Of a DNA stretch of 64,000 nucleotides, positions 14,536 through 35,822 are shown piece by piece. The position numbers and the translations under genes are program-made. This DNA is from Bacteroidales bacterium (GTDB lineage Bacteria; Bacteroidota; Bacteroidia; Bacteroidales; Paludibacteraceae): NCBI GenBank assembly GCA_022783865.1, contig JALFYY010000007.1:4020-68019 (forward strand), written 5' to 3'. Below the pieces are notes generated by a model. That model saw nothing but the letters and a program-made list of their open reading frames with translations, was not told the DNA's origin and searched no databases. The number at the start of each line of letters is the position of its first letter. The first letter of the stretch is position 1.

Positions 14536-14993
14536 ACATTTTTCTTTTTTATAAGTACATGTCGACGGAAAGATAACACATCTTGACCATTCTGGTTACT
14601 TGCAATCGTCTCTACATACACGATACCACGATCCGATTTGGTATTAGACTCACGTTTATCAAGTACTTTTGTACGAACATATAAAGTATCACCAATAAAT
14701 ACCGGAGCCAAGTGCTTAATATTTTCGTAATCCAAATTAGCAATAGCCTTGCCACTAATATCGGGCACAGTCATACCAACAGAAAGCGAGAACACCAACG
14801 TACCGACTACCAGAATCCTTCCATGTTGATTACGACTGGCATAATCAGCGTTCGTATGCACAGGATGATGATTCATCGTTAGCAGACTAAAAAAATTATT
14901 GTCGCTCTCGAAAATAGTCTTGCTGAGTGAATGTTTTATTTCTTGACCGACTTCGAATTCTTCGAAGTACATGCCTAATTTACTTGGTTCCAT
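14532..14993 (-). CDS. MaoC-like (R)-hydratase/dehydratase
   Basis: Hot-dog fold pattern FSLLTMNHHPVHTNADYA...GRILVVGTLVFS. The start is set at Met21 (TAATG overlap with the upstream stop), and there is a 4-nt overlap with the downstream gene. Confidence 0.8.
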   Translation of the reverse strand: MEPSKLGMYFEEFEVGQEIKHSLSKTIFESDNNFFSLLTMNHHPVHTNADYASRNQHGRILVVGTLVFSLSVGMTVPDISGKAIANLDYENIKHLAPVFIGDTLYVRTKVLDKRESNTKSDRGIVYVETIASNQNGQDVLSFRRHVLIKKKNV

Positions 14994-15664: not shown

Positions 15665-15700
15665 ATCTTTCTTACACTTTTAGTATTTCTACCATACAAT

Positions 15701-16426: not shown

Positions 16427-16464
16427 TTTTCTATTATTTTGTTCTTTTGGAGTTTAATATATGC

Positions 16465-16623
16465 TTAAAGCCAAGTTCCTTTTTCATCCGAATAACGATG
16501 CGCAACATTATTCGGCAGGTAGTCTGCCGTAATAACATAGTATCCTTGCTCGTACGCCGCCTTAATCACAGGCAGCAAATAGTGGATACCACCGAGGAGC
16601 ATTATTTTCTTTTGGACTGACAT
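16465..16623 (-). pseudogene. ATP-grasp enzyme remnant (first ~48 codons only)
   Basis: Not in the ORF track. My translation, MSVQKKIMLLGGIHYLLPVIKAAYEQGYYVITADYLPNNVAHRYSDE, is followed by KGTWL and a stop. It matches the pre-ATP-grasp N-terminus of the roughly 400-aa enzymes usually found beside WbqC and DegT genes (from memory). Confidence 0.5.
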
Positions 16624-16659
16624 ATTATAGCCTTTCTATCTCTTTCAAATATAACTTTT

Positions 16660-18222: not shown

Positions 18223-18225
18223 GTA

Positions 18226-19630: not shown

Positions 19631-20590
19631 TTAGTCGAAGAGGCAACGGCAGGTGTAGCGTTTGCGGTGCGGGATACGCCACGAGAGTCCCAACTCCAAT
19701 CCGAGCGAAAAAGCGTTCGCCCTGTTGCCGACAAGGTCGGTATCGAGCAGAGAAGTATAGTCGGGCATGAAGGCATGCAACGACTCCATACCCGGACGGT
19801 CGTTGCGGAAGCCGAGTTCTGAGACAGTCCGTCCAGCGGGCATGATGTCGGTGAAACCTCCTTCGAAGAAGAAGCGGCACGTGAGAGACATGTGCGCCGT
19901 GAGCGGCACCGCCACTCCGACTTTGAGAAAAGCACTCCACATATCCCTATATTTTACCTCTGTCCGGGGATTGAAATCAGTCTCGGTATAGAATCCGTAA
20001 GGCGGCAAGTCGTAGAGCAGCAGATGCCACTTGTCGTACCAGCCCGTATGGGTGACAGAGCCTGAAGCAACGGTACCTCCGGACAAGTAGATGCCATATT
20101 TGACCCCCACTTCCGCCAAGAAACGGATTTGCCCGACGGGGACATCGAAGCGCAAAGAGACAGGGAACTGCGCATAGAGCGCATTGTGCCGTTCGCGCCA
20201 GCCAGACAGCATAAGACGGTGTTCGTAAGGCTCACCATCGGAATCGGTCTGCCCCGCCCACGACAAAGCGGAAGGCGGAGTGAGTGCAGCACCATAGCGC
20301 GACAAGTCCACTCCGAGAGACACACCTACCACAGGTGTAAAGAACAGCGTGTAGCCGGCATGCGCCGTGAGTCCCCACGAGCCTGCATTGGATACCTCCT
20401 GCGCCAAAGGACGATAGGCGATATCACTCCAACCGCCTCCGACCGAAAGTTCGAAAGCGGAACTTGTACCCCCGTCCGCCGCCTTTACCACAGAGAAAGG
20501 CAGCAGAAAGGCAACAGCAAGACACCAGCGGAAGAAAATGCCAAGACTGCCAGAAGACGTATTTATTTGACGATAATCCTTACTATCCAT
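19631..20590 (-). CDS. outer-membrane beta-barrel protein (paralogous to the barrel of 24103-25875)
   Basis: It has a signal peptide and alternating beta-strand pattern. It shares W.G..DSDGE.Y.H...WRE and (G/D)FYTET with the 590-aa protein. Confidence 0.65.
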   Translation of the reverse strand: MDSKDYRQINTSSGSLGIFFRWCLAVAFLLPFSVVKAADGGTSSAFELSVGGGWSDIAYRPLAQEVSNAGSWGLTAHAGYTLFFTPVVGVSLGVDLSRYGAALTPPSALSWAGQTDSDGEPYEHRLMLSGWRERHNALYAQFPVSLRFDVPVGQIRFLAEVGVKYGIYLSGGTVASGSVTHTGWYDKWHLLLYDLPPYGFYTETDFNPRTEVKYRDMWSAFLKVGVAVPLTAHMSLTCRFFFEGGFTDIMPAGRTVSELGFRNDRPGMESLHAFMPDYTSLLDTDLVGNRANAFSLGLELGLSWRIPHRKRYTCRCLFD

Positions 20591-22158
20591 TGCGTACGTT
20601 CAGCTCCAGTGAGCCGAACCAGATAAAAGCCTTTCGGCAGGTTAGACAATACATTTTCCCCTTCCTTTACGGGAACAGCAGTGACAAGCCGTCCGTCGGG
20701 ACAGAAGAGCGCAAGTGCCGTATAAGCGGCATCAGACAAGGTGAGCACCAAAGTGCCGCCACGTGACACCAACCGTGCCGGAGAAGCATCGGCATAAGTG
20801 TCGGCACTGCGGGGAATGGCTGCATAAGGGAGTGCACAAGAACATTGTTCCTCACCCGAACGCATGCGGGCACATACATGGAAAACGGAGGCAGCCGTAG
20901 CCTTGCCGCCCGTATCAGGGAAATAGAGGAATTGCTTGGTTTCGCCCTCCAACGGACGCCCGTCGCAATACCATTGCCAAGCGATATAGGCATCGTCGGC
21001 ATTGCTGCAAAAGAGCACATCGGTCCACTTGGCATAGACCATGTCTTCTTTGCAGACAGGAGACGGAGGCGGGTCGGGCAAACAACGCACCGTATCGAGG
21101 ACAAGGACATGCAGAATACTATCGCATCCCCGAGGGCTCTGTTCTATCCATTCGACCCTATCGGGTTTAGTGAAAGTATAGCCCTGCCACTGATAGGGCA
21201 AGAGCGTATCGCAAACAACGGTATCCTGCACATCTTCGAAAGGCGTAGGACAAGGAAGATTGCAATCGTGCGGCTTGATAACAAAGACATTCTCATATAC
21301 CACTATATTGTCAATCGTAGTGGTTTTCTGGAACATGATATCGTCGAGGCAGAAATCGTTGCCACTGGACGAGGTGTTGTTGTCGTACACTCCAATAAGC
21401 ACTTCGTTAGAGGAAACAGGAGATTTCCACGTTGTTTCTATCAGTTCCCACGCATTGAGCGGAGAGGCCTTTCCCAAGGTATGTTCGGTGCCCAGATTAT
21501 AGGTCTGCGAACGTCCTGAAGCGTCCTTGCAAACGATGACGAACTGCAAGCGTGCCGGAGAATTGTTGGGATTTTTGTTGGGATATGCCGCCCAGTAGGA
21601 GAAAAGATAGGTAGAGTCCTTTTCAAGCACCAAATCGGGGTTGTCTTTGGTCTCGGCTTTCCACGCATAACCGTCGGTACCTGCATCGAACAGCGCAAAC
21701 CAGTTGCCTCCATGCGGACGGACCGGATAGAAATCTTTCCAGAAGTAAGAAGCATCGTGCGTGATGGCATAGAGATTGGAAGCTCCTCCGTGATTACTAT
21801 AGTACTGCGACGGGTCCCAACCGGCATAAGCATAGTCGGAAGAGAAAGAGGCAGGAGGGTTCGCCTCGAAGTCGCCATTCGCCATTAAATTGAACTTTGC
21901 ACTTACCGTCTTTTCCAGCACTTGGCACACATAAACAGCGGGCGCATCCGCCTGCACAATGACGGAACGACGGTCGTCGGGCAACAAATGCCCGTCTTTG
22001 GTCCACCGATAGGCATCGCCCGACTGAGTTGCCGTAAGAATCTGCTGGACACCGATACAAGGCGTCAGAGTGGTAGTTTCGGAGGGATACTCTTCCCCCC
22101 GAACTATCAGTGCACAGACGCTCAGCAATATTATCAACAGACTACTACGCAAACGCAT
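20563..22158 (-). CDS. secreted CBM-like (GDFE jelly-roll) protein with T9SS C-terminal sorting domain, paralog A
   Basis: It has a signal peptide. The central domain reads NLMANGDFE...HGGNWFALFDAGTDGYAWKAET...SPARLQFVI...NDFCLDDIMFQK. The tail LPKGFYLVRLTGAERTQWIVRIIVK is typical of a type A CTD. Confidence 0.7.
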   Translation of the reverse strand: MRLRSSLLIILLSVCALIVRGEEYPSETTTLTPCIGVQQILTATQSGDAYRWTKDGHLLPDDRRSVIVQADAPAVYVCQVLEKTVSAKFNLMANGDFEANPPASFSSDYAYAGWDPSQYYSNHGGASNLYAITHDASYFWKDFYPVRPHGGNWFALFDAGTDGYAWKAETKDNPDLVLEKDSTYLFSYWAAYPNKNPNNSPARLQFVIVCKDASGRSQTYNLGTEHTLGKASPLNAWELIETTWKSPVSSNEVLIGVYDNNTSSSGNDFCLDDIMFQKTTTIDNIVVYENVFVIKPHDCNLPCPTPFEDVQDTVVCDTLLPYQWQGYTFTKPDRVEWIEQSPRGCDSILHVLVLDTVRCLPDPPPSPVCKEDMVYAKWTDVLFCSNADDAYIAWQWYCDGRPLEGETKQFLYFPDTGGKATAASVFHVCARMRSGEEQCSCALPYAAIPRSADTYADASPARLVSRGGTLVLTLSDAAYTALALFCPDGRLVTAVPVKEGENVLSNLPKGFYLVRLTGAERTQWIVRIIVK

Positions 22159-22172
22159 ACAATTATGTATAA

Positions 22173-24071
22173 TTAGAAGACAACTTGTTTTTCTGCCTCC
22201 ACAGAGCCGTCGCTGTAGGTAACGACTATCAAGCGGAAGTTGGTAGATACTTCATACATACGGCGTACCACCTCCATTCTTGTATTATCTGCCGGATAGA
22301 CAGCAGCAGAGGGTTCGGCATCGGCAAACGTAGTATGGCACGATTCAACTTCGCCGTTGACAACCACCCAGAACTCATCGTCAGGAGCGGGCTCGCTCTC
22401 CATACGGAAATACTGCCCCGTGGCACCTTCGACAAGCTGCCCGTTGCAATACCATTGATAAGAGGTATAGCGTTTTTCGCTATTATCCACGAAAAGGAAA
22501 TCGTTCCACTTACGATAAACATTCAGGTCGCACTGCGGCTCGTTGCAGTCTTCGACAGTAATGATGTAATGGTCGGTGAACGCCACCCGAGATTCGCTAT
22601 AGGAAACGGTTTGGAACATGATATCGTCTAAACAGAAGTCGTTGCCCGTGCCCGCATTGGAGTTCAAGTCTTTGACACCAATCATGACCTTGGTAGAATT
22701 GACAGGCGATTTCCACGTGACAGTCTGCTGATGCCACTCGTTGTCGTCGGTAGGCAGGGTATAAGGCTCACCCAAGTTTTCTTCGGTACCATCGTAGGAA
22801 ATAACGAACTGCAAACGGGCAGGAGAATCGCTCTCGGATGCTCCATTGGGATGTGCCGCCCAATAGGAGAAATAGTAGATGGAATCTTTCAGAATAACGA
22901 GGTTGGGATTGTCCTTTGTATGGTCGGAAGCACATTCCGTTTCCGCTTTCCATGCGTAACCTGACTTGCCTGCATCGAAGAGTCCGAAAAGATTACCTCC
23001 ATGCGGCGTTACCGGTTCATAGTTCTGCCAAAACCAATTGGCATCGTCGGTAAGGGTATAAAGGTTGGATGTTTCAGGGTGCGCCGTATAATAGTTATGC
23101 TCGTTGGACACATAAGCATAATCGGAAGTGAAACCGACATTGTCTTCGAAATCGCCTCCAAGCATAAGGTTGCGCTCGGCATTGACTACCGTCTTATAGG
23201 CAGTGACAGTGACATGATAAGTCTGCTGCTTATCGGTAGGAAGCGCAAGTGTACGTGCCGTTTCGCCATCGACCGGTACCTGCTGCACTTCCCACGCATA
23301 GACTTCGGCATCGACCGCAGAGGTGAGTTGCAATTCGTCGCCCATACATACAGTGAGCGAAGTGGTCTTCTCGCATTCGGGTGCAGGTGCCACCACCTTG
23401 ATTTGCTTTTCTTCCAGCAACAAAGTGCAAGCGACATCGCCATAGAGACCGACCATGAAGGCGACCTCATCCCCCTGCTGCAGGTTGAGACCGGTAACGG
23501 TATATTCGTAAGGAGAATGCGGCGTCTTGACCAATTTGTCTTTTTCGAGCATACTGCTGCTGATGCGCAACCCGCAAGGAGCACCGTCAAAACGAAAGGC
23601 AAGTTCCGCCATATAGGTGTCATCGGCACAATTGTACACAAGATTGCAATCTGCCGACTGCAAAGCAGTAGCCCCTGTAGCAGAAGGAGCCGCCGCCCAA
23701 TGAAATTCCCTTCCGTTCTCCGTATCGATAACACAATAGGGCTTAGACTTGGACCAACCGTTGGCATCCTCGGTATGGGTACCGACTTGCCCGTTGACCG
23801 CAGCCGCCGTTTCGGAATCGCTGTAGCAGAAACGGATATTGTCTTGCGTGGAGGTTGTGGCTGTGTACTGATATACACCGTCGTTGCCCGTGACGGGCGT
23901 CATTTTGTAGGACTTGTTGTCACGACTGAGGTATATATAGTAGGACTTCTTGCAGCACCAATGCTGTGTAACATCCAGATAGATAATAGCCCCCTTGGGT
24001 ATATCGGCAAATGCAGCTACTGCTGCAACCAACGCCAACAAACTGATATATAAACGCTTCTTCATATTCAT
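22173..24071 (-). CDS. secreted CBM-like protein, paralog B (extra N-terminal domain)
   Basis: MNMKKRLYISLLALVAAVAAFA signal peptide. NLMLGGDFE...HGGNLFGLFDAGKSGYAWKAET...SPARLQFVI...GNDFCLDDIMFQT is colinear with paralog A. The start was trimmed to Met10. Confidence 0.7.
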   Translation of the reverse strand: MNMKKRLYISLLALVAAVAAFADIPKGAIIYLDVTQHWCCKKSYYIYLSRDNKSYKMTPVTGNDGVYQYTATTSTQDNIRFCYSDSETAAAVNGQVGTHTEDANGWSKSKPYCVIDTENGREFHWAAAPSATGATALQSADCNLVYNCADDTYMAELAFRFDGAPCGLRISSSMLEKDKLVKTPHSPYEYTVTGLNLQQGDEVAFMVGLYGDVACTLLLEEKQIKVVAPAPECEKTTSLTVCMGDELQLTSAVDAEVYAWEVQQVPVDGETARTLALPTDKQQTYHVTVTAYKTVVNAERNLMLGGDFEDNVGFTSDYAYVSNEHNYYTAHPETSNLYTLTDDANWFWQNYEPVTPHGGNLFGLFDAGKSGYAWKAETECASDHTKDNPNLVILKDSIYYFSYWAAHPNGASESDSPARLQFVISYDGTEENLGEPYTLPTDDNEWHQQTVTWKSPVNSTKVMIGVKDLNSNAGTGNDFCLDDIMFQTVSYSESRVAFTDHYIITVEDCNEPQCDLNVYRKWNDFLFVDNSEKRYTSYQWYCNGQLVEGATGQYFRMESEPAPDDEFWVVVNGEVESCHTTFADAEPSAAVYPADNTRMEVVRRMYEVSTNFRLIVVTYSDGSVEAEKQVVF

Positions 24072-24102
24072 GGTTGATTGAATTATCTCATATAACAATA
24101 CA

Positions 24103-25875
24103 TCATTCTACAGGAATTATCTCGGTACGACGGTCCAAAGCAATGGAGTGTTCCGCTCCGTCGCCTGCATCGTAGGCTATATCGGCGGCATGCGCCTCTA
24201 CGGCAATCTGCTCCGGTTTGGCTCCTTTGGCGACAAGTAAATCGGCAACCGCCTGTGCACGCTGCTCGGAGAGAATACGGTTCTTACGGGCATTACCTTC
24301 TTTGCTGGCATGACCGGAAACAATAATCTTCTGGTCGGGATTCTCTACCAAGACAGCCGCTATACGGTCGAGAATATCAGCCGGTTCGAGCTTGGGAACA
24401 ATGGAATTGACATCGAACCAAATGACTGATTTGTCCATCAGACGCACAATCTGACGTGCCGCCTCTTTCTTGGGTTTAAGAACTGTTTCCTGACGGTTTG
24501 CCACCGTAAAGGTGGTATCGCAAAGTTGGATACGTTCGTAAACGGGCTCGGGCTTGCGTGGCCGTTCCACATGGTGCCAAGAAATACCCACTTTGAGTCC
24601 GACACCCCACGGACGCACTGCAGAAGCAAAGTCGGTAGCGAGTTCACCCCGATACTCGTTCATGAAAGCATGCTGACGATAGCCCGACTGTCCGGGTTGC
24701 TGCCAACCGACAGGTGCCTTGGTCTCGTTGTTCAAATCGAGGCAATTCATCTGAAAATAGACGCCACACATCAAATCGAGCTGATTGTTCAAAGGAATCA
24801 TGACTCCCAAATCGGCTCCTGCCGCCAATGCCACCTTCTTGAGATTGAGGTCGCGACGGCCGGTAGCAAAATCGCTGCCGATGGTTTCGGTATAGAAATC
24901 GCGGTCGGGCTGACCGGTGACCAGCATATTCCATTGCGGATAGTAGCCTTGATGTTCCAAGGAACCGCTTTTGAGCGCATACTTGCTATAGACAGGAACA
25001 CCGACACGCACTCCGGCACCCGCATAGAGACGGAGACCATTATCGCCCAACGGATATTGGCATTGGATACCGACGGGAAGTTCTACGATATGGGTAATCT
25101 GCTGCTCGCGCCATTTGCGGGTGAGTGCATAGTGATTGTAGATTTCACCATCGGAATCGCCGACACCTGTCCATTCGTTACGGTTGTCAAGGACACCATA
25201 ACTGCCGTAGCCCGAAAGCGCAACACCTGCCGTGATACCCCAGTTCTCGTGGAAATAGTAAGCATACTGCACTTGCAGAAGTCCCTGCAAATCGCCGGTA
25301 TTCTTTCCGACTTTGCCGCCGTCGGCATTGCGAAGCGTATAACCCATGGAGCCATAACCCACCCCTAGATGCGCCTGCACATAGTGCCCTTTGCGGGTAA
25401 CGACAGGAAGAATAACGCTATCGGATTCGATAAGGTGCGTTTGTGTACGGCACGACACCGACCAAGTGGTATCGGCATAGGTACGGACTATCTTTTCGTC
25501 GTCTTCCTCCACCTTGTAAGGCTCGGTTGCCGTCTGCTGCCAAACCACAGGCGGCACCGGCACATTGGTAATACGGATAACGCCTCTTTTGGATTTGACG
25601 ATATACTGCTTGCCCAAAATCTTCTTAACCGCCGCCACAGCACTCACCTCTTTGAACTTACGATTGACGGGCTCACCGAGGTCGATATCCGCTTCTTCGA
25701 AATTAATGATATAGCCTGTGCGCTTGCCTATGTCTTGCAAAACATCTGCCATAGGAGTATTGACATAGGTGTGCGTAAGTTTCTTATACGACGCTTTTTT
25801 CTTCTGCTGTGCCGCCTCAGCTCCACCAAGAGCCAACAAGAGGCAAAGCACCAGCGACAATAACCGGTTGTTCAT
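24103..25875 (-). CDS. STN-domain / beta-barrel / OmpA_C-domain outer-membrane protein
   Basis: After the signal peptide, VNTPMADVLQDIGKRTGYIINFEE...VSAVAAVKKILGKQYIVKSKRGVIRITN resembles an STN domain. A central barrel follows. The C-terminal IIVSGHASKEGNARKNRILSEQRAQAVADLLVAKG...LDRRTEI is OmpA-like. Confidence 0.75.
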   Translation of the reverse strand: MNNRLLSLVLCLLLALGGAEAAQQKKKASYKKLTHTYVNTPMADVLQDIGKRTGYIINFEEADIDLGEPVNRKFKEVSAVAAVKKILGKQYIVKSKRGVIRITNVPVPPVVWQQTATEPYKVEEDDEKIVRTYADTTWSVSCRTQTHLIESDSVILPVVTRKGHYVQAHLGVGYGSMGYTLRNADGGKVGKNTGDLQGLLQVQYAYYFHENWGITAGVALSGYGSYGVLDNRNEWTGVGDSDGEIYNHYALTRKWREQQITHIVELPVGIQCQYPLGDNGLRLYAGAGVRVGVPVYSKYALKSGSLEHQGYYPQWNMLVTGQPDRDFYTETIGSDFATGRRDLNLKKVALAAGADLGVMIPLNNQLDLMCGVYFQMNCLDLNNETKAPVGWQQPGQSGYRQHAFMNEYRGELATDFASAVRPWGVGLKVGISWHHVERPRKPEPVYERIQLCDTTFTVANRQETVLKPKKEAARQIVRLMDKSVIWFDVNSIVPKLEPADILDRIAAVLVENPDQKIIVSGHASKEGNARKNRILSEQRAQAVADLLVAKGAKPEQIAVEAHAADIAYDAGDGAEHSIALDRRTEIIPVE

Positions 25876-25931: not shown

Positions 25932-28559
25932 TCAGTACACTACCACTTTCTGTCTGCCAACGAGATAGAGTCCCTGCGGCAGTGCAACGGTGTTTGTTCC
26001 TTCGTGCAAAAGCATACGGTTTACCATATGTCCGTCAGCAGCATAGATATTCACCTGTTGTGGCGTAGGGCTACCGATGTAGAGAATACCGTTTTCGCTA
26101 TAAAGCGTAAGCGCATCCGACGCAAGATTTTCCACACCTGCGGGTACATCGTCACAGACAAGACTCACCGTAGAGGTGCATTTGATGTCATTTCTGTCGG
26201 TACCTGTGTAAAGTCCGTGCATAGTGAAAGGAAGGTCGTTGGTCTGATTGCCGCCGTCGTTCCAGATAATCATCCAATCGGAAGCCACTGCCGGCCATTC
26301 GTCCGGCAAAACAAACTTATAGTTGCCTCCACCGAGAGAGGTTGCCCGCAAACCGGGCCACGAGGTGAACGAAGTACTGCCTTTCACCCACATGTGGACA
26401 TTAATACCACTCCCCCATCCGCCAGGCTTGGTAAAGAAGACCGCACGTTCGTCCTCCGTTTCCAGGCAAGGAGGAACAGCCGGACCGACGATAGGGTCAT
26501 CGCCACCAAAATTCTTGTCATCCTCTTCTTGCGTGCCGTCCCATTGCGGATCGGCAACAGAAACTGCAGAGGAAGTATAGATGTACTTGCCATCGGTACC
26601 AATCTTGCCCGGAGCGGGTGTTTTGGCTGTGGACAACACATAGACACGAAGGTTGCCTTTGCCTTTGCAAGTAGCAGTAAGCGTACCGTTAGTAACGGTT
26701 TTGACATCACCGGTTACAACATCGGTATAAGTACCGTTGGGAATGCCTGTGAAAGTAGCATTACCAGAGATAGTAACCAGTGCATAACTATCGGTAGCGG
26801 CATCGGTATAACGGCGTTTGAAAGCAAAAGTACCATTGCAACCGGTGGTGCTGTACTGCCCTTTACGCAAGGCGGGCACCGCCATACGAATCCGACTCAG
26901 GCGCTGTATGTGCAGCGCCAAAGGATGGGAGAGCGTTTGTGCCATGTTGCCCGTAGCCCCCGTATATTCGGCAAAGTCGGTAACTTGGGCAGAGCCTTTG
27001 ATATAGCCGCCGAAATAGGCACGACCCGATTCCTTCAATGCAAGATTAGGTCCATCGTCAATAATGCAACCTTTCTTAAATTCGATTTCCGACCCATAGT
27101 ACACACAGGGAATACCACGGAAAGTGTACATGAGACAGAGGTTTTCAGCCCATGTATCCTGCGGTTGCGCAAAACGCTGTTTCTCGGGAGCACCGTCGGG
27201 TGCATAGTCGTGGGAATCGACATAGACAACGTTCCAAGTGGCATCGTTGTAGTATTTGTCACCAGACCTGACACTCCATGCCTCGGCAGTACTACGGAAA
27301 TTCCAGTGCATAGGGAAGTCGATGACACTCAAGCCGGAGAATTGGCTATAGTCGGGCGTATGGTAGTCGTTGCCATTGAGCAAAGCATTTTGCGAAGTAC
27401 GTCCGTCGCTGTATTGTCCATCGTAATCGGCAGCGAATTGGTCAACAGAGGTTACATTGGTATGGGTGCCTTTTTGCCCTTCCATCACTACGACATTATC
27501 CCAAGAAGTTTCGCTTGTATCCCAAGCGTAGTTTTTCTTTTCGGTCCACGTATAGAAATAAGGACTGAGATTATCGTGATTGCGGTAGGTTACGTTACGC
27601 TCACGGGCACAGACTTCCGCAAACATAAAGAAATCACCTCCGTTGCGTTTGGCTTTGTTCTCTTCTGCCAATTTGCGGAATTGAGGTATGAAGTTCTTAT
27701 TGAACGTAAGGCGTGAGATATGTCCTCCCGTGTCGATACGGAAACCATCCACCCCCATTTTGATAAACTCTCCGTAGCAACGCACGAGATAGTTTGCCAC
27801 ATACTGGTTTTCGGTATTGAGATCAACGCAATCGCCTGCAATCTGCCCCCACCAACGCGTAGGATCGTCCCAGCCGAAATGGGCAAAATGATGCCAATAG
27901 TTGTGAGTATCGTGGTTGACACCGTCGGTATTCTTCATTTCCGCCAAACGCCAATCGTATTGTTTTTTCACCTGCTGCGAATAATCATCGGGAAGACGTC
28001 CGCCGTCTTTTTTGGTAAAGGGAATCATGCAGGCATTGATATCGCTCTGGTCGGCAGACCAATCGCGGTCGAAAAGTTTGCAGAGATTGGCTTCGCCGAA
28101 ATTGCCGGTATGGTTGAGCACAATATCGAGAATGAGCTTCATTCCACGGGCATGCACTGCATCAATCAGGTCTTGGAAATCAACATCCTCAGACTCGTAA
28201 CGATGGTCAACTTTTGAGAAATTGCCGGCATGATAGCCGTGATAGTCGAATCCGGAAGCATTTTCCACCACAGGGGTAATCCATACGGCAGTGAAGCCGA
28301 GTGCTTTGATGTAATCGAGTTTTTCAATCAGCCCCTTGAAATCGCCACGCCAAGCAGGGTCACCGACATTACGGCTCTGTCCGTCCCAACACTGTGTATT
28401 GTTGGAAGGGTCGCCATCGTAAAAACGCGTGGTTATGACAAAATAAATTTGCTCGTCACGGAAATCCGTTCTGCTCGGGAAAAGGGTTGCCGCCATGGTT
28501 GACTGCCAAAGCAACAGCCCCACCGCTACCATCATCAGATGTCTGAATATTCTATTCAT
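25932..28559 (-). CDS. GH13 alpha-amylase-family enzyme with C-terminal CBM-like region and T9SS CTD
   Basis: GH13 conserved regions are present: LDIVLNHTG, GVDGFRIDTGGH, FMFAEV and VYVDSHDY. The tail reads QGLYLVGRQKVVVY. Confidence 0.9.
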   Translation of the reverse strand: MNRIFRHLMMVAVGLLLWQSTMAATLFPSRTDFRDEQIYFVITTRFYDGDPSNNTQCWDGQSRNVGDPAWRGDFKGLIEKLDYIKALGFTAVWITPVVENASGFDYHGYHAGNFSKVDHRYESEDVDFQDLIDAVHARGMKLILDIVLNHTGNFGEANLCKLFDRDWSADQSDINACMIPFTKKDGGRLPDDYSQQVKKQYDWRLAEMKNTDGVNHDTHNYWHHFAHFGWDDPTRWWGQIAGDCVDLNTENQYVANYLVRCYGEFIKMGVDGFRIDTGGHISRLTFNKNFIPQFRKLAEENKAKRNGGDFFMFAEVCARERNVTYRNHDNLSPYFYTWTEKKNYAWDTSETSWDNVVVMEGQKGTHTNVTSVDQFAADYDGQYSDGRTSQNALLNGNDYHTPDYSQFSGLSVIDFPMHWNFRSTAEAWSVRSGDKYYNDATWNVVYVDSHDYAPDGAPEKQRFAQPQDTWAENLCLMYTFRGIPCVYYGSEIEFKKGCIIDDGPNLALKESGRAYFGGYIKGSAQVTDFAEYTGATGNMAQTLSHPLALHIQRLSRIRMAVPALRKGQYSTTGCNGTFAFKRRYTDAATDSYALVTISGNATFTGIPNGTYTDVVTGDVKTVTNGTLTATCKGKGNLRVYVLSTAKTPAPGKIGTDGKYIYTSSAVSVADPQWDGTQEEDDKNFGGDDPIVGPAVPPCLETEDERAVFFTKPGGWGSGINVHMWVKGSTSFTSWPGLRATSLGGGNYKFVLPDEWPAVASDWMIIWNDGGNQTNDLPFTMHGLYTGTDRNDIKCTSTVSLVCDDVPAGVENLASDALTLYSENGILYIGSPTPQQVNIYAADGHMVNRMLLHEGTNTVALPQGLYLVGRQKVVVY

Positions 28560-28708
28560 TGGTTCGTTATGTATTATAAAAAGTTTATGTTTATAAAATA
28601 TTTATTCTTCAATTGCAGCAGGAAAGGCAGTGCCGTACAGACTCTGCTTACCGGTATCCCTATCCTACTTTCATATATCCATCAAATTCAATGTATCGGC
28701 GAAAGCAC

Positions 28709-31700
28709 TTACCATGCTTTCAGTTGTCTGCCCTGTACGTCGTAGAGCCGATTGTCTTTGCGTATATACAGGTTTCCGTCGATCAAGTATTTGCGTATGG
28801 TATTGTCTTCTGTTCCGACATTATCGCTTGCGGTTATGATATGCTGCTTTGGGTTTACCTCCAACACAAAGCGTTGCGCATACGTGCCCTTGGCAAGCGT
28901 AACCGTATAGGAATCAAACAGCAGATTCGTGCGTATGCCTGTTTCCGTATCGAGAAGAGTTACAGACATACCTTCCGTGCCATCGGGCAAGGCGAAAGTA
29001 TATTCGCCGTCCTGCGTAAGACTCACTCCGACAGGAATCTGCTTCAGAGCGACAGGCACAGGCTGTACATTAGCCGCCACACGGATAGAATCGCCATCGG
29101 TAAGTGTATAGAGTGATACACCGGCATTGTCTATCTTGGTGAGGTCGATATTCAAATCGAACTCACAAGTAGCTTCTCCGTCCCGGAAACGGACATAGGT
29201 TTTGTCCAACCGTTTTCCATTACGGCTAAGGGCAAGAAGCAAAGTGTAGCATTCTTCTTCGCCTGCCACCCTGCGGGCTTGCAATTCCTTCGGCAACGTT
29301 CCACTGTAGTTTTTTTCTTTCCAATCAATTGTTCCCGCAAACTGCACCATATAGGCGTAAGTACTCATGAAATCAATACTCTCCGCCTCATTGACATTAT
29401 AGCAAATCTTATTGGGGTCATACTCGTACAGGAATCCCACCTTATAATTGCCAATCTGCTCCATCGGCATCGGATTGCCAAATTGGTCGATATTAGCAAA
29501 CGAAGGTGCACCAATCAGATTCCAGTTGGAATCGTAGATATAGCGGTTGTCGCGCTTAATGGAACAAGGATGCGCCGGTACATCCACCGACACCCACTCC
29601 CCGCTGATATCCATAGGCTCTTTATTAGCAGAGGGGAAATAGATACAAACTTCCTCATTACCAGCAGTGAAGAAGCGATCTACAATCCGTTTCCAGTCAA
29701 GCACTATGACATAGCCGAAACCTTTCTGAAGTTTCACTCCTGCGGTTTCTTCATAGTATTTCCAATAGGTTGGGGAGTCGCTCCAGCAACCTTTATCTGC
29801 CCGGGCAACTCCATCGTAGTACTGCACCATATAGTCGTTGCCGTATTCCAATCCTCCTCCGAACACTTCCGACAACATGACATCAAACGGGAAGGAAATC
29901 CAATAGATACTTTTCTCTTTTGAGGATGCCTTTCCCTCAAGATATTCTTTCGTCAGTACCAGCACCAAATAAGCCGTATTCACCTGCTTGAGTTTGGTAG
30001 AATTAGGATCGAATGTCAATTGTTCCGCTTCTTCATGATTTTTACGGATAATCATCAAATCCGTCTCTATCTCATCTTCCACCGTAATTTGCTGATTACC
30101 GGGCAACCACGAACAGATAAGATGATTTGTCTTGAAATCGTAGAGTACACGGATTTTATAACGGCTTGTCTGCTTTCCTCCCAACAGTTTATAGACGTTT
30201 TCTTCCGTAAAATCGCCTTCTTTGCCTTTGAAATACTGCTTGACATTCTGATAGGGAGCAAGCACTTTCACAAAAGTATTGGCATTGGCATACATATCGG
30301 CACGATACACCCAGTTTTCACGGTCTTTCAAACAAACTTTGGTCTGAGGATCGCCCCCTTCAGCCTCCTGATATATACCTTCCTTGCTGAGCAGTTGGAC
30401 ATTCTCTCCGGCACCTGCCAAATAGGCACGGTTGAGCGAATTGTCGTAGCTATTCCACATGAAGCGCACATTGGCATCGTTGGACAACTTACCATCGCTA
30501 CCGACAAAGCCGTTGGAGATTTCGTAAGTATTGCGTACCAAGGTATCGGCAATGCAATAACTATAAGGAGTAGCCAAAGTGAAGCGTATATCGGTTCCAT
30601 GTGTTACCCACTCGCAATAGTAGTAATCGAAAGTTTCGTTGTTTCGTGCATACTCGGAATAGTAGCAACGATTCATTAGATTCCCGATATAATTCAGGTC
30701 GGAGAACCCTACCCCGCCACGCCGTTTGGCGGCATCTGAGCGGATATAATAGGCACCCGTATAAGGATAAACTTCAAGCACTCCGATATTGTCTTCAGAT
30801 TGCTTGCGGAGAACAAAATTGTACACACCGTTGCCTTTAATAGACGCATGCTGTTTGACATCGATGGTTTTGACGGTTGTCCACTTCGTAGTGCCGATTG
30901 CCATCTTCTGCAACCAAACCTCGCATGTATTGGGATTGGCGGATTCCACTCCGGCAGCGTCTTTGCACATAGGACGCACATGCATACTGATAGTGTCGCC
31001 CACTAAACTGCCGACAGCCACCCGCGTGCGCGGCACGACACTATGCGAAGGATGGCACAGCACCTGCGTAGTGCCGTTGCGCTCCACATAAACCAACCTA
31101 TAGGCATCGCCCGGTTCTTCGCCAAAGCCTATCACCACTTTGCCATCGGCAAGCGAAAGAGTGATGGTATAGTCTCCGGAGTGAGAGGGCGTAAAAGAAA
31201 CATAAGTAGGAGAGGAAGCCCAATCGTCCCATTTATAGAGCCGGTAAGCCTCTTCGTCGCCCTGCAGGACTGCATTGTAACCCACAGAGTACCACTCGTT
31301 TCTGCCGTTGGTGACACAAAGCGTGTAGGTCTGTCCTGCCGTAGCCTGTACAACAGCCTCGAACTTGTAGCCACCTGCCGTAATTGCCGTGAAAGGCACA
31401 CGGGTTTCGGCATTGCCCTGTCGCCATACCAACGAATAGCCCGATTCGGTGGAGTTGTATTTCATCCAGATACCGTGGTTATAGTAGTTGACCTCGTTGG
31501 TGCGATAGGCAGCCATACCCCGTTCGTGCACAAAGAGCGGCATATCAGGAGTGAACTGATACAGATAGACCGCTTCCGTTTGGTACAAGTAGTCATAATC
31601 GTTTTGATTGTCTTTGGCGAAAGCGATGTATTTAGGCGACTGAACAGTGAGGACATGTCCGTAAATATCATCGCGCACCCGCTTCATCTGCAGCACATCA

Positions 31701-33538
31701 CCGATACGCTTTGCTTTCGGTTGTACTCCTTTTTCCTCGTCGGTATGTCCGGTTTCGGTGCGGTGTTTTGTACTCCAAACGTTATCAGAGAAGAGATAGA
31801 GATAGACATCGTTCCAGTTAAGCCCGTTTTGCTTGAAATAGACAGCCGTGAGTTGCCGGAAGCGGACATAGACCTGACTATTGTCTTCTGTAACTTGAGA
31901 GAGCGTATAAACGGTTTCCGTTCCGGCAGCGTCGATACGGTGGGTACCATCGATGTCGGTGTACCAACCTTCCACCGTATAGCCTGTTTCCGGCACAGCA
32001 GTGAACGTAGCAGACATGACAGCATCGCCCGAATCGATAACACGGTTGCCAGATTTCGCCGTGAGTGCACCGCCTTGATTGTCAATCACACCGAAACTGA
32101 CAGGATAGGGGTCGGAAATAACAGGCAGACTGTAGCCGGCACAAAGAATATGCTTGTCGGAAGGGTTGACGGACGTATTCGGCATAAAGAGGAATACGTA
32201 GTAGGAACTTGTAGTGTTGCCAATACAAGCATTGTGCCATTTACGTTCATTTTCATTGGGATCCTCACTCAACGTAATGTTGGTACCGGCAAACCCGTTG
32301 CTAATATAAGTATCACCATAATAGGGTATATCATCAGCATTGTTGTTCTGAGTAAAGATTTTAAACTTATTGTTATCGTTATAAGCAGGTCGCTGAATAT
32401 AGGCATACAAATGGTCTTCGTCGTTCCACAACATCTGTATTCCCTTGTTATTTCCCCAGTTTGTTACTTTCTCATCCATATAATAGAGTTCGGGGCGTTC
32501 GATTGCCGGCAGCCATTTAGCATAAAGTGTAAAATCAGAGGTTACAGCAGTATTGAAATCATAGGCAGTGCCTGTACATTCAGCATTGGTGTACCAACCG
32601 CCGAACGTATAGCCGGAAGCCGTCGGGTCTGTAGGTTTGTCAGCCTTATCGCCACTATTGACCGTCTGCGCACTCGGTGCCGTACCGTGTCCGTTAGCAT
32701 TAAAGGTTACGGTAAAAGTAGTGACAGAAGCTTTTGTAATCCATGTTTGTTTCGCACTATAATCAAACCATATGCGTATTGTAGCACCACTGGTGCCATG
32801 GTAGTAACAAACAGATTTATTATCCCATCCGCTGATATCTTTGTCCGCACTAACTTTAGAGCCATTTGCTATTACCTCAGTTCCTGTAGGATAAGAACTC
32901 CAATCCCCTGCATAAATAGCCTTTTCGTCTGTTCTTTGGAAACGAAAGCAAAAGTATTCTTGAGTAGTCTTTATATCAACATAGTATGCTTTTGTAGTAG
33001 CATCATATGTCATAACTTTGTTATTATTCATAGTTCCTGTATAACTACCTGAAGAGGTATTCACATATAGCAACTTGCATTCTGTCGGTTCTAACGAGCC
33101 ACTGCTATAAGTTGACCAAGAAGACGAGTTATCCCAACCTGATAACTTAACGCAATTGTTGCTACCCATCTCGTCTGCCTTCATCTTAGCAGAATAGTTC
33201 CATACGTCAGTTCCCTTCTTACGTATAAAATACATCTCTTTAACAATAGCATTAGGAACCGTAACCTCAAAAATTGTATCTGCCACCTTTGTGGTGGGAG
33301 TAGAGGCTGACAAATTGTTTTTTGGTGAATATTCAGAGTTTGTTTCGTAGCACAAACTCGTTTTATCGGAATAGTAGAAAATAGCAACTATTTCGGCACC
33401 GTCCTTTGCCCAATCTGTCTTATCTATGTTTAAATAAATCTTAGAACCTTGTGTAAAATTTGCTCCCCACGATGCTTGACTTACTCCGAGCAGAAGCAGC
33501 AACGTACAGAAAACATATTTGCGTATATATTGTTTCAT
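28709..33538 (-). CDS. 1609-aa exported multidomain protein (Listeria-Bacteroides repeats, CBM-like modules)
   Basis: It has a signal peptide. FTVTFNANGHGTAPSAQTV...GYTFGGWYTNAECTGTAYDF...TLYAKW is a Flg_new/List-Bact repeat, and a second copy occurs near aa 470-550. The C-terminus reads KYLIDGNLYIRKDNRLYDVQGRQL. Confidence 0.75.
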   Translation of the reverse strand: MKQYIRKYVFCTLLLLLGVSQASWGANFTQGSKIYLNIDKTDWAKDGAEIVAIFYYSDKTSLCYETNSEYSPKNNLSASTPTTKVADTIFEVTVPNAIVKEMYFIRKKGTDVWNYSAKMKADEMGSNNCVKLSGWDNSSSWSTYSSGSLEPTECKLLYVNTSSGSYTGTMNNNKVMTYDATTKAYYVDIKTTQEYFCFRFQRTDEKAIYAGDWSSYPTGTEVIANGSKVSADKDISGWDNKSVCYYHGTSGATIRIWFDYSAKQTWITKASVTTFTVTFNANGHGTAPSAQTVNSGDKADKPTDPTASGYTFGGWYTNAECTGTAYDFNTAVTSDFTLYAKWLPAIERPELYYMDEKVTNWGNNKGIQMLWNDEDHLYAYIQRPAYNDNNKFKIFTQNNNADDIPYYGDTYISNGFAGTNITLSEDPNENERKWHNACIGNTTSSYYVFLFMPNTSVNPSDKHILCAGYSLPVISDPYPVSFGVIDNQGGALTAKSGNRVIDSGDAVMSATFTAVPETGYTVEGWYTDIDGTHRIDAAGTETVYTLSQVTEDNSQVYVRFRQLTAVYFKQNGLNWNDVYLYLFSDNVWSTKHRTETGHTDEEKGVQPKAKRIGDVLQMKRVRDDIYGHVLTVQSPKYIAFAKDNQNDYDYLYQTEAVYLYQFTPDMPLFVHERGMAAYRTNEVNYYNHGIWMKYNSTESGYSLVWRQGNAETRVPFTAITAGGYKFEAVVQATAGQTYTLCVTNGRNEWYSVGYNAVLQGDEEAYRLYKWDDWASSPTYVSFTPSHSGDYTITLSLADGKVVIGFGEEPGDAYRLVYVERNGTTQVLCHPSHSVVPRTRVAVGSLVGDTISMHVRPMCKDAAGVESANPNTCEVWLQKMAIGTTKWTTVKTIDVKQHASIKGNGVYNFVLRKQSEDNIGVLEVYPYTGAYYIRSDAAKRRGGVGFSDLNYIGNLMNRCYYSEYARNNETFDYYYCEWVTHGTDIRFTLATPYSYCIADTLVRNTYEISNGFVGSDGKLSNDANVRFMWNSYDNSLNRAYLAGAGENVQLLSKEGIYQEAEGGDPQTKVCLKDRENWVYRADMYANANTFVKVLAPYQNVKQYFKGKEGDFTEENVYKLLGGKQTSRYKIRVLYDFKTNHLICSWLPGNQQITVEDEIETDLMIIRKNHEEAEQLTFDPNSTKLKQVNTAYLVLVLTKEYLEGKASSKEKSIYWISFPFDVMLSEVFGGGLEYGNDYMVQYYDGVARADKGCWSDSPTYWKYYEETAGVKLQKGFGYVIVLDWKRIVDRFFTAGNEEVCIYFPSANKEPMDISGEWVSVDVPAHPCSIKRDNRYIYDSNWNLIGAPSFANIDQFGNPMPMEQIGNYKVGFLYEYDPNKICYNVNEAESIDFMSTYAYMVQFAGTIDWKEKNYSGTLPKELQARRVAGEEECYTLLLALSRNGKRLDKTYVRFRDGEATCEFDLNIDLTKIDNAGVSLYTLTDGDSIRVAANVQPVPVALKQIPVGVSLTQDGEYTFALPDGTEGMSVTLLDTETGIRTNLLFDSYTVTLAKGTYAQRFVLEVNPKQHIITASDNVGTEDNTIRKYLIDGNLYIRKDNRLYDVQGRQLKAW

Positions 33539-33550
33539 AACATTATAGTT

Positions 33551-34024
33551 TTAAGCGTTATGTGTTGTATCTTTCGTATTTTGTGCAAGCGTATTCCGAC
33601 GTTGTTGACGCAGAAATATCCCTACAGCTGCCAAAGCGGCAAAGAGTAGCATACTCCATGCGTCGCCAAGGGGCGAATATTCACTTCTGTTGGGGTCGTC
33701 TTTATTATCAGACCCCATGCCTTCTCCTCCGAAGGCTCTGCGCTTCACCATCCCATCATTGTCAACAGCAACGAGCGGAGCAGGCGTTTCAGTTGAAAAC
33801 GGCATATAGATAGTGGAACGATACGTTCCCGCCCCCCCTGCAGGGGATACCGTGAGGCTATGTACACCCCACGAAACAGTAGGCGCAGATAGTTCCTTAC
33901 CCATAGGTAAGGTATATATAGTTTGCTTGTCTGTTTCCAATAACGGAGAACAGACAAATCTTTGTGCCTGTAATGACAAAGCCACAAGCACAAAAAGGCA
34001 TATCATTTGCAGTTTGTTTTTCAT
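33551..34024 (-). CDS. small exported protein with C-terminal TM anchor and basic cluster
   Basis: Signal peptide MKNKLQMICLFVLVALSLQAQ. The C-terminus is SPLGDAWSMLLFAALAAVGIFLRQQRRN plus 12 further residues. The stop lies 12 nt before the start of the 1609-aa gene. Confidence 0.55.
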   Translation of the reverse strand: MKNKLQMICLFVLVALSLQAQRFVCSPLLETDKQTIYTLPMGKELSAPTVSWGVHSLTVSPAGGAGTYRSTIYMPFSTETPAPLVAVDNDGMVKRRAFGGEGMGSDNKDDPNRSEYSPLGDAWSMLLFAALAAVGIFLRQQRRNTLAQNTKDTTHNA

Positions 34025-34072
34025 GGTAGGTATACAGAGGTTGCGCCTGCAGGCGCAACCTCTAACGGGTAA

Positions 34073-35758
34073 TCAAAAAACAACCAATTTTTCTGTCGTA
34101 TTGTCCACACGGAGAATATAGATACCAGCATTGAGCGTGCAACGGTAATCGGAGGTGAACTGCATATCCAACAATTGTCCACCCATAGTATAGAGTGCCA
34201 CAGAAGCAGCCTTATCCGTTGCAACAGAAAGACATCCGTTGTTCAACGTCAGTGCATAACCGGCAGTTACATTCTCTACAGCAGAAGGAGTATCTTCAAT
34301 CTGATAAGAGAGCGTAAGCGTGCCATCGGTATTGCCAAGCAAGGTAAAGGATATTTGCTTATTACCAGGCACAAACATTTTCTCACCGGCTGTAGTAGTC
34401 GCCGTGTTATACAACGTAGCGGGCGATTCAGCAACATAGGTTTTCGACATGAACCAGTTCTTGTTGTCACCGGTCTTGACGAACACATAGGAGTCTTGTG
34501 TGAAAGTTGCAGTAAGTGCACCATTTACGAAATGATACTCACCCATATTGTCAGCATCGTCTTCGCAACCATAGTCAGCACCGTTGATGTAGCCTACAAG
34601 GTAGAAATCGCCCGTGATTTGAACAGGTGCGGTTACCGTCATTTCTTTGGTATCTTCCGCTGTAGCACCGCCATCACCGGCAACACTTACTTTCACAGTA
34701 TAAACACCTTCAGCAGCAGGTGTGTAGGCAACACCTTCCAAAGCAACAAAGTCAGTTGCTTCCGGAGCCTTCACGCTATAGGTATAAACAGGATTTTCTA
34801 TATTCATTGCCGTAGCGGAGAATGTAACTTCTTCGTTTACAACAGCGCGTTCGGGTACGTCAAGAACAACCAGAGGAGTTTCATCAGCCACAACACTCAG
34901 TGTGCTTGCAGCATAATCGTAGGTATAAGTAACCATCATGCCCGTAGCGGCAGGAGCACCCGTAATCTGATCAGCGGAAATCCATTTGGCACCGGCATCA
35001 CCAGCCGTTGTATTGACGTTGACACCACCTCCCTGCCAATAATCTTTTCTGCTGAAAGTACCGTTGTCTTGCTTCGTCATCTCGCGCCATTCCCATGCAT
35101 TGTTTTCGAAGGGGTGTTTCAGATACATCTTGTCAGGCAGTACAATTACCACTTCACCATCGAAGCTGTTGGTCCAACCGTTGTTGTAATACAAGTTTTC
35201 GGGATCAACGGTGAGGTCATCGGTTTTCTGCGAACCGTTATTAAAGATAATATTGGCAGGCACACCACCTTTGAAATCAACAGAGAACCAACCGGCATGG
35301 TCAGCCACAGCAGTCATCTCAGTACCGGGCCAACCGGCAGTAACGGCAGCACCTCCCCATCCGTAAGCATACACCTTATCCCAATTTTTGACATTGTTGT
35401 AGTAAATGGTATAGATTTCCACAATCACTTCACCATCGAAGGAGGAAGTCCAACCGTCGTTATAATAAGGTTTGGCGGCATCCAAAGTAAGGTCACCGGT
35501 TTGACCTTTTCCACCTCCAACGCCATTGTTGAAGATAATCTTTGTAGCCTTGGTTTCGTCCACTTCGACAGAGAACCAACCAGCATGATCAGCCACAGCC
35601 GTCATCTCAGTACCGGGCCATTTGCCCAAGGTCTCTTCAGAGAACGTGTAGGCACATACTTTCGTCCAATTGGAAGCAGTGTTGTTGTAGAAAACAGTCA
35701 GCGCATTAGCAGCCATAGAAAAGAGGGCAAGCGCCAACATAAGTGTAAATTTTTTCAT
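34073..35758 (-). CDS. secreted protein with two starch-binding-module-like repeats, Ig-like region and T9SS CTD
   Basis: A duplicated module reads YYNN..NW.KVYAY.W...WPGTEMTAVADHAGWFSV...IIFNNG...T.DL...YYN.GW (CBM25/26-like, from memory). The tail is AGIYILRVDNTTEKLVVF. Confidence 0.75.
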   Translation of the reverse strand: MKKFTLMLALALFSMAANALTVFYNNTASNWTKVCAYTFSEETLGKWPGTEMTAVADHAGWFSVEVDETKATKIIFNNGVGGGKGQTGDLTLDAAKPYYNDGWTSSFDGEVIVEIYTIYYNNVKNWDKVYAYGWGGAAVTAGWPGTEMTAVADHAGWFSVDFKGGVPANIIFNNGSQKTDDLTVDPENLYYNNGWTNSFDGEVVIVLPDKMYLKHPFENNAWEWREMTKQDNGTFSRKDYWQGGGVNVNTTAGDAGAKWISADQITGAPAATGMMVTYTYDYAASTLSVVADETPLVVLDVPERAVVNEEVTFSATAMNIENPVYTYSVKAPEATDFVALEGVAYTPAAEGVYTVKVSVAGDGGATAEDTKEMTVTAPVQITGDFYLVGYINGADYGCEDDADNMGEYHFVNGALTATFTQDSYVFVKTGDNKNWFMSKTYVAESPATLYNTATTTAGEKMFVPGNKQISFTLLGNTDGTLTLSYQIEDTPSAVENVTAGYALTLNNGCLSVATDKAASVALYTMGGQLLDMQFTSDYRCTLNAGIYILRVDNTTEKLVVF

Positions 35759-35822
35759 GTTGATTTATGTTAAAAAGTTATACATACGGGGAGCGGAAAA
35801 AGGATTCCGCTCCCTTAATAAT

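Follow-up and report, generated by a model that had tools for sequence, protein, structure and literature searches.

The window analysed here is a 64,000-nucleotide (nt) stretch of the genome of a Bacteroidales bacterium of the family Paludibacteraceae (assembly GCA_022783865.1, contig JALFYY010000007.1, positions 4,020 to 68,019 of the forward strand). At 19631-25875 it carries a module of four genes, P0001 to P0004, encoding two predicted outer-membrane beta-barrel proteins and two putative type IX secretion system (T9SS) cargo proteins. This module is one case of a large class: T9SS cargo that ends in a particular immunoglobulin (Ig)-like domain plus a C-terminal secretion signal (CTD) is encoded beside one family of barrels. 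The finding is more general than an earlier note on this DNA had supposed. We favour, at somewhat less than even confidence, a reading by analogy in which the barrels serve type A T9SS cargo as a protein anchor or shuttle, comparable to the operons of Flavobacterium that combine PorP-like, PorE-like and type B CTD proteins.

All four open reading frames lie on the minus strand in a close array. P0001 (24103..25875, 590 amino acids [aa]) has a signal peptide, an STN-like periplasmic N-domain, a beta-barrel and an OmpA_C domain, and would be a barrel tethered to peptidoglycan. Cargo A, P0002, occupies 22173-24098 with 641 aa if translation starts at a TTG, or 22173..24071 with about 632 aa if it starts at an ATG. 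Its predicted parts are, in order, a signal peptide, an N-terminal region, an Ig-like domain, a jelly roll resembling those of carbohydrate-binding modules (CBMs), the terminal Ig-like domain that we call cmod, and a 40-aa tail resembling a short CTD. Cargo B, P0003 (20563..22158, 531 aa), consists of a signal peptide, an Ig-like domain, a CBM-like jelly roll, a Cys-rich repeat, cmod and a predicted long type A CTD. P0004 (19631..20590, 319 aa) is a stand-alone barrel, paralogous to that of P0001, with a basic C-terminus that ends in a C-x-C motif (HRKRYTCRCLFD). The coordinates given in the earlier note were confirmed, as was its spacing of 4 nt, 14 nt and then a 28-nt overlap, which holds for the starts it used. 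The ATG at 24071 is the more likely start of P0002, because a normal signal peptide begins there (MNMKKRL, MNMKKRLYISLL) and because the ortholog in a locus of 82% identity is called at 631 aa. With that start the gap becomes 31 nt.

The domain cmod is the region of the two cargo proteins that contains the shared motif KW.D.LF...QWYC.G..EG, directly before the T9SS signal. Searches with a cmod profile (hmmsearch) place it at aa 522-601 of cargo A in the TTG numbering (22296..22535, minus strand) and at aa 369-455 of cargo B (20794..21054, minus strand). Throughout an alignment of twenty-eight relatives it is the penultimate element, with the block Y-A-K-W-x-D-V-I-F-V ... Y-Q-W-Y-x-x-G-x-x-I-x-G-A-T-x-Q-F-Y ... 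S-C, and what follows is always either a type A CTD of about 70-90 aa or a tail of 25-41 aa. Neither Pfam nor NCBIfam has a family for cmod. That it might be a wholly new domain was rejected: against the PDB, its profile matches Ig-like domains of phage tail proteins and of T4 Hoc (E 4.5e-19 to 2.6e-9), and 40,183 representative proteins give a match to its core, for the most part as repeats in the interior of giant proteins. Only the first strand (KW-D-V-L) and the terminal position are special to cmod and, the core being so common, any specificity must therefore lie in these two.

The genome (1.92 Mb, 98.8% complete) has five strong matches to the cmod profile, namely P0002, P0003, one protein on contig C16 and two on contig C4. 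The immediate neighbourhood of three of its six OmpA_C proteins accounts for all five cmod proteins. At C16:146911-151951, a 732-aa protein with a barrel, a CarboxypepD_reg domain (CRD) and OmpA_C is followed by a 951-aa cargo with IgGFc_binding and PKD domains that ends in cmod and a CTD; the 732-aa protein also has a long N-terminal stretch rich in Lys, Glu and Gln. The locus at C4:49357-58459 encodes a 1084-aa cargo with a short tail, a 616-aa barrel-CRD-OmpA_C protein, a 1027-aa cargo with a CTD and a 315-aa free barrel. The kinds of part are the four seen in the window, here arranged differently, and a gene for a 2891-aa CTD protein comes next. An iterated search united P0001, P0004 and the barrels of C4 and C16 in one family of seven members and drew in no further barrels from the genome. 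Six of the seven adjoin cmod or CTD cargo. At C16:238387-246179, a 537-aa barrel-domain protein follows a 2061-aa CTD protein. A rough CTD profile found about twenty CTD proteins in the genome, and the roughly eighteen without cmod have no barrel neighbour, with the exception of one weak case. At about seven barrels per 1.9 Mb, the expectation of adjacency by chance is well under 1%.

The same linkage is seen across the family. We found cmod in 115 of 151 Paludibacteraceae genomes, which represent 31 of the 33 genera; a single genome has up to 23 copies, and the frames are 327-7,681 aa long. In a sample of twenty loci from at least fourteen genera, every locus had a barrel gene of this family within 400 bp of a cmod gene. 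At locus L048, in a complete genome, a cmod cargo of more than 3,400 aa is encoded next to a 607-aa barrel-OmpA protein. A second sample comprised eighty loci from species-representative genomes, thirteen of which were cut by contig ends, leaving sixty-seven evaluable. A barrel was present within 400 bp in forty-nine and at 0.8-1.8 kb in seven more (56/67 of the evaluable loci). All module genes detected in these eighty loci (the cmod cargo and barrels found with the first profiles) are co-stranded, and the gaps that we inspected are small or replaced by overlaps. The full four-gene set is kept at 82% identity in loci L001 and L002 and also occurs in another genus (L041): the four genes are co-conserved. 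Reduced versions with one cargo gene and both barrels occur at 35-41% identity in L003, L005 and L007. Four loci (L061, L062, L072, L118) come from entries titled 'Firmicutes bacterium CAG:95', 'uncultured Clostridium sp.' or 'Dialister sp. CAG:486', and carry Paludibacteraceae-like cmod cargo and barrel-OmpA genes; the titles are most likely wrong bin labels rather than evidence of transfer.

In a maximum-likelihood tree built from 102 barrel domains, one clade (support 100/99) unites the P0004-type free barrels, and its sister group (98/93) consists of the P0001-type fused barrels. The split recurs in the other large branch, where thirty-nine fused barrels make up one clade (100/97). One free and one fused barrel are present in each of L001, L041, L003, L005, L007 and L042, even where there is a single cargo gene. 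Given the split in the tree and the presence of one barrel of each type per orthologous locus, the duplication into free and fused forms is old, and both types are kept together. The stable unit is a free barrel and a peptidoglycan-tethered one, accompanied by one or two cargo genes. The earlier note had described a paired cargo/barrel layout. Such a layout is real, but two barrels with one or two cargo genes describes it better, and a strict pairing of one cargo with one barrel was not supported: a locus with a single cargo gene still has both barrels, and at many loci two cargo genes come with one barrel. The STN domain is confined to the P0001 sub-branch (L041, L042, L044), and other branches bear CarboxypepD_reg instead. 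It is an accessory domain of that one sub-branch only.

One alternative to a specific partnership is that the barrel proteins are general OmpA-like factors of envelope integrity, comparable to the OmpA-like proteins of Porphyromonas and to CHU_0125, which would be co-transcribed with large surface proteins and would stabilize the outer membrane under their load. OmpA_C proteins with barrels of the Bacteroidota type are indeed common structural proteins, weak NCBIfam matches link ours to 'outer membrane integrity' proteins of the CHU_0125 type, and eleven of the sixty-seven evaluable loci have cmod cargo without a barrel. We nevertheless regard this alternative as unlikely. Within one genome the linkage selects cmod cargo (5/5, against about 0-1/18 of the other CTD proteins), it spans many genera and many types of cargo, and in the tree the barrels have multiplied along with the cargo loci.

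Between the barrel of P0001 and P0004 the identity is 31% over 255 aa (E 3e-30). The alignment covers the motifs DSDGE.Y.H, WRE and FYTET, by which the earlier note had already recognized them as related. In P0001 the barrel region extends over aa ~120-466 (24478..25518, minus strand), and two 32-residue strands (aa 245-276 and 281-312) bear DSDGE.Y.H and WRE. Foldseek matched it to OmpA, OmpW, OprG, Pla and OmpT, and also to Ail and NspA. The OmpA_C domain, identified with PF00691 and Foldseek, occupies aa 470-590 (24106..24468, minus strand). This domain, too, had been called correctly from the sequence: PF00691 scores 57.8 bits on aa 495-564, against a cut-off of 27.2, and matches all thirty-two relatives. 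Its structural matches are Pal, OmpA_C and PorE C-domain structures, with TM scores of 0.7-0.8 to Pal and OmpA C-domains. The AlphaFold2 models used in these comparisons are single chains of P0001 (mean pLDDT 85) and P0003 (pLDDT 83).

The N-domain of P0001 (aa 30-106; 25558..25788, minus strand) was assigned from profile matches of its relatives and from the topology of the model, which has the order beta-alpha-beta-beta-alpha-beta-beta (pLDDT 80-90), then the barrel and then the OmpA_C fold. The earlier note had called this domain STN-like, which is supported at the level of the family but not by P0001 alone: eighteen of thirty-two family members match PF07660 (best E 1.2e-6) and three match FecR_C, whereas P0001 itself has no Pfam match to STN at E<=1. 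Against the PDB, a profile of the N-domain gave only a weak match, to the lipoprotein of the BfpB-G complex (E 0.0037).

No curated NCBIfam model covers the barrel family. P0001 scores 19.3 bits against PF13568 (OMP_b-brl_2), where the threshold is 27, and twenty-six of its thirty-two relatives match at E<0.01. P0004 has no match in Pfam or NCBIfam, and the other free barrels are likewise without a family there. An ortholog of P0004 with 61% identity is labelled 'PorT family protein' by NCBI. Judged from these matches, the barrels may be called loosely PorT- or OMP_b-brl_2-like. What they have in common with PorT and the small PF13568 barrels is the label of the ortholog and the weak matches of relatives, but PorT is a single-copy core factor of the T9SS, whereas this family is multi-copy and linked to cargo. 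Membership in PorP/SprF was rejected: neither P0001 nor P0004 matches PF11751, and an hhalign comparison of the barrel-family profile with the genome's own PorP gave a probability of 0.5%. PorE was rejected as well. Its model NF052230 (TPR, beta-propeller, CRD and OmpA_C) demands at least 600 bits, and P0001 reaches 33.6, confined to the OmpA_C part; the barrel-CRD-OmpA_C paralog on C4 reaches 83 bits at positions 458-600, over CRD and OmpA_C only.

In most stand-alone barrels, a basic C-terminal stretch and then C-x-C come just after the last strand (e.g. HRKRYTCRCLFD in P0004, or KKYDCHCDWN). The motif lies within the final 25 aa in thirty-three of forty-seven such barrels and slightly further upstream in a few more. 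Fused barrels instead have two conserved cysteines, C141 and C451 in P0001, both within the long strands flanking the barrel.

The genome encodes T9SS core proteins, with SprA_N in a 2480-aa frame (E 4e-196), PorP (E 9e-56) and a GldK/PorK-like lipoprotein whose gene adjoins that of PorP. The PorP/SprF gene is the only one in the genome, and no PorP-like paralogs are therefore available for cmod cargo. The earlier note had distinguished a clear CTD in one cargo protein from a weaker, CTD-like tail in the other, and the two do differ in this way. The predicted type A CTD of P0003 spans aa 461-531 (20566..20778, minus strand), from TIGR04183 and a seven-strand model. Its own score against TIGR04183 is below the cut-off (E 3.1e-4, 20.7 bits, cut-off 23), but five long-tailed relatives match (best E 1.2e-11) and the P0003 model has seven strands at aa 461-530. 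P0002 has no match to the type A CTD models TIGR04183 and PF18962. Its 40-aa tail, VVRRMYEVSTNFRLIVVTYSDGSVEAEKQVVF, and the similar tails of its orthologs have R-x-Y-x-I/V, a hydrophobic strand and D-G/N-S...E-K. In Prevotella intermedia, short CTDs of three strands, 43-55 aa from cleavage site to C-terminus and with motifs B, D and E, are functional T9SS signals that are cleaved and glycosylated (PMC11969387). The tail of P0002 appears to fit this description when compared by eye. As in that species, the module combines a seven-strand long CTD with a tail of ~40-50 aa that has R-x-Y, a hydrophobic strand and E-K (PMC11969387), and a single locus holds both the long type A CTD (20566-20778) and the short CTD-like tail (22173-22295).

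A second, very short tail of ~25 aa after cmod, with the consensus K-V-L-R-N-x-x-L-Y-I-x-x-x-x-x-L-Y-D-x-x-G-x-R-V-E, was seen at C4:55208-58459 of this genome and in L066-L074, L082, L093, L120 and L123. Its only resemblance to a published motif is the motif-B-like Y-D-x-x-G-x-R-V, and its motif order is unlike that of the published short CTD. Cargo with this tail adjoins an OmpA_C-fused barrel in eleven of fifteen cases, or in eleven of thirteen without the two on short contigs.

The two cargo proteins of the window have 45% identity across 294 aa (E 4e-68), and a second segment, over the KW..LF/QWYC motif, aligns at E 3e-10; the earlier note was right to call them paralogs. In cargo B, the jelly-roll core extends from NLMANGDFE to GNDFCLDDIMFQ (aa 86-280; 21319..21903, minus strand). 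The P0003 model shows, in order, an Ig-like domain, the jelly roll, the Cys-rich repeat and a small beta-domain, and it ends in a sandwich of seven strands. By Foldseek, the jelly roll is closest to CBM22 (4xuo, 4xup) and CBM16 (2zey, 2zex), with target-normalized TM scores of 0.69-0.75 and 12-14% identity, which bears out the jelly-roll-like core that had been proposed from its motifs. The Pfam model CBM_4_9 (PF02018) remains sub-threshold for P0003 (19.8 bits against 25.9) and does not match P0002, for which neither Pfam nor NCBIfam has a family. The predicted resemblance to CBMs is thus one of fold only.

Modules of CBM4/9, CBM22 and CBM16 typically have an N-terminal NG.FE motif and a C-terminal DD motif. 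The cargo proteins share with these modules the jelly-roll fold and differ from them in their low identity and sub-threshold Pfam scores and in a core that is unusually conserved. The alignment of twenty-eight relatives has thirty-five invariant columns in the jelly roll, and the loop PHGG.YFALFDAG..GYAWKA is highly conserved. In many relatives a Cys-rich repeat (V-C-D-T-L-x-P-Y-x-W-x-G-x-x-F ... G-C-D-S-I), present one to three times, lies after the jelly roll and before cmod. It matches no model of Pfam or NCBIfam in the carrier proteins that we scanned, and it can also be seen by eye in the large cargo proteins of C4 and C16.

Upstream of the module, at 25932..38342 on the minus strand, are genes for T9SS-exported GH13 amylases and CBM26 proteins (by Pfam), 56 nt from P0001. 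This synteny is kept in L001, L041 and L003, an amylase gene adjoins the L044 module, and GH97, SusC and SusD genes flank the module in L005 and L007. Because of the CBM-like fold and the recurrent amylase neighbourhood, it is a reasonable guess that the cargo of the window binds alpha-glucan, and a role of the module in starch capture is plausible.

The same neighbourhoods could be taken to mean that the module is an accessory of starch uptake, in which CBM-like proteins would bind glycan at the surface and the barrels would serve as small oligosaccharide channels, replacing the missing SusC and SusD in a T9SS-based amylolytic cluster. The module lies on the same strand as the amylase genes with no obvious promoter in the 56 nt between them, amylase or CBM26 genes or the GH97/SusC/SusD set accompany its STN-barrel relatives at the loci named above, and the cargo fold is that of CBM22 and CBM16. 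We still consider such an uptake system quite unlikely. Elsewhere the same barrels are linked to IgGFc_binding, PKD and giant adhesin-like cargo at loci without glycoside hydrolases, the structural matches are to non-channel or narrow barrels (OmpA, OmpW, Ail, NspA, Pla), and OmpA_C and STN are not features of sugar porins. The wide range of cargo on one barrel family argues against a channel, and also against signalling as the primary role.

We return to the reading that we favour, the protein anchor or shuttle. In F. johnsoniae, five or six operons encode type B cargo together with its cognate barrel of the PorP/SprF-like kind and an OmpA_C protein resembling PorE. The products are proposed to form a static, wall-bound complex, as for PorP-PorE-PG1035 of P. 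gingivalis (PMC9143113, PMC12618676). The loci described here resemble these systems in that a cargo gene adjoins a gene for an outer-membrane barrel and an OmpA_C gene or domain, and the sister loci on C4 and C16, whose fused proteins have the order barrel, CarboxypepD_reg, OmpA_C, carry the CRD and OmpA_C half of PorE. They differ from the PorP/PorE operons in several ways. The barrel does not belong to PorP/SprF, a single protein unites the barrel and the OmpA_C domain that are separate there, a free barrel paralog usually comes in addition, and one sub-branch adds an STN-like domain. Cargo here, unlike that of type B operons, ends in type A CTDs, long or short, preceded by the special Ig-like domain. 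P0001 also has, like E. coli OmpA, Capnocytophaga OmpA and the CHU_0125 family, an N-terminal barrel and a C-terminal peptidoglycan-binding domain (Foldseek, HMM), but it is set apart from these by its STN-like N-domain, its larger barrel with two 32-residue strands and its strict linkage to secreted cargo. Anchoring of T9SS cargo by a barrel and a peptidoglycan binder has been proposed before; what differs here is the barrel family, the fusion and the cargo signals. The earlier note had recognized no described system in this combination. We likewise found no description of the pairing of these barrels with cmod cargo in a search of open-access texts, but the combination is not a one-off and belongs to a large class. 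Of the roles that the note had suggested for the module, an anchoring complex is the one favoured by gene context.

Under the anchoring reading, Sec and then the T9SS would export the two CBM-like proteins, the 531-aa one through its long type A CTD and the 641-aa one through its short CTD-like tail. Removal of the signal would leave cmod as the membrane-proximal end of the mature cargo. There we infer that cmod docks on the neighbouring two-barrel unit of the outer membrane, formed by the 319-aa free barrel and the 590-aa barrel, whose OmpA_C domain would tie the unit to peptidoglycan and whose STN-like domain may offer a contact surface in the periplasm. The result would be a static display of cargo at the cell surface, tethered to the cell wall, and at the locus of the window the displayed cargo would probably bind alpha-glucan beside the amylases encoded upstream.

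Several points weigh against this proposal. Type A cargo is generally thought to need only PorV and attachment to lipopolysaccharide (LPS), so that a protein anchor is not required. The barrel family has no detectable similarity to PorP (hhalign 0.5%). The Ig-like repeat that makes up the core of cmod is very common, with its 40,183 representative proteins, and the short CTD of the 641-aa protein is a tentative assignment made by eye. Eleven of the sixty-seven evaluable loci lack a detectable barrel neighbour despite adequate flanks, and the evidence for anchoring consists of genomic context and models of single chains.

The barrels might instead be cargo-specific helpers of export or assembly, which would take the cargo from the SprA translocon as shuttles, like the PorP/SprF-like partners of type B CTDs, and would not be permanent anchors. 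The genetic logic is like that of type B CTD/SprF-like pairs, where stoichiometric cognate shuttles are needed for secretion (PMC12618676), and the genome has its single PorP gene. However, the cargo already bears type A or short CTDs, which PorV handles (PMC12618676, PMC11969387), and the OmpA_C tether to peptidoglycan argues for a static role. A helper without any anchoring function is rather improbable in our view, although it overlaps with the reading that we favour and differs from it in timing alone. Very unlikely is a trans-envelope sensor, in which the binding of ligand to the surface CBM-like proteins would be signalled by way of the barrel and its STN-like domain to a periplasmic partner, such as an anti-sigma factor of the FecR type, and so control the amylase genes, as in TonB-dependent transducers: family-level support for the STN-like domain, FecR_C-like matches in three members and the confinement of STN to a sub-branch beside alpha-glucan genes speak for it, but there is no sigma or anti-sigma gene among the Pfam-scanned genes of the window, no plug and no TonB box, and most barrels of the family keep the cargo linkage without an STN domain.

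The four genes seem to be the last part of the transcription unit of the amylase genes, because the 56-nt spacer before P0001 (25876-25931) contains no Bacteroidetes-type TAnnTTTG box, while the downstream gene for a Wzt-type ATPase carries its own box, TAACTTTG, ~25 nt 5' of its ATG. The spacer, between the amylase gene and P0001, has a 7-bp hairpin (GCAGGTT...AACCTGC) without a T-run, which could be a site of RNA processing or attenuation inside the operon. Scans for sigma-70 promoters and terminators gave counts not above those in shuffled sequence.

Directly downstream of the module, at 13648-19515, are genes for the Wzt-type ABC ATPase and, as an amino-sugar set, for a DegT aminotransferase, WbqC and a hexapeptide acyltransferase. 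N-acylated amino sugars join T9SS cargo to LPS in other Bacteroidales, and it is conceivable that this cluster is linked to the attachment of the cargo. Within the DegT aminotransferase gene (16660-18222), Pfam finds an in-frame DUF559 endonuclease unit at aa 196-301, between two DegT stretches.

Beyond the single locus, it is possible, if doubtful, that Paludibacteraceae have an undescribed protein-anchoring branch of the T9SS. In this branch a terminal Ig-like 'address' would direct cargo to a cognate two-barrel unit, one barrel free and one fused to OmpA_C and sometimes to STN or a CRD, which would have evolved independently of PorP/SprF and PorE and do the same job; at this locus it would display alpha-glucan-binding proteins beside amylases independently of Sus. 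Current models have type A cargo held by a glycan (LPS) link only and reserve PorP/SprF-like partners for type B. If the proposal is true, protein anchoring to the cell wall arose at least twice in the T9SS, and a terminal Ig-like domain with an adjoining barrel would be a genomic rule that predicts which secreted proteins are retained on the cell. The Ig-like domain and CTD, together with their barrel, could also serve as a compact display scaffold for surface engineering. For this gut and rumen family, a barrel family of separate origin would be linked to cargo in most genera and at up to dozens of loci per genome, and it may offer a hint of how Bacteroidales poor in SusC/D hold polysaccharide and enzymes together at the surface.

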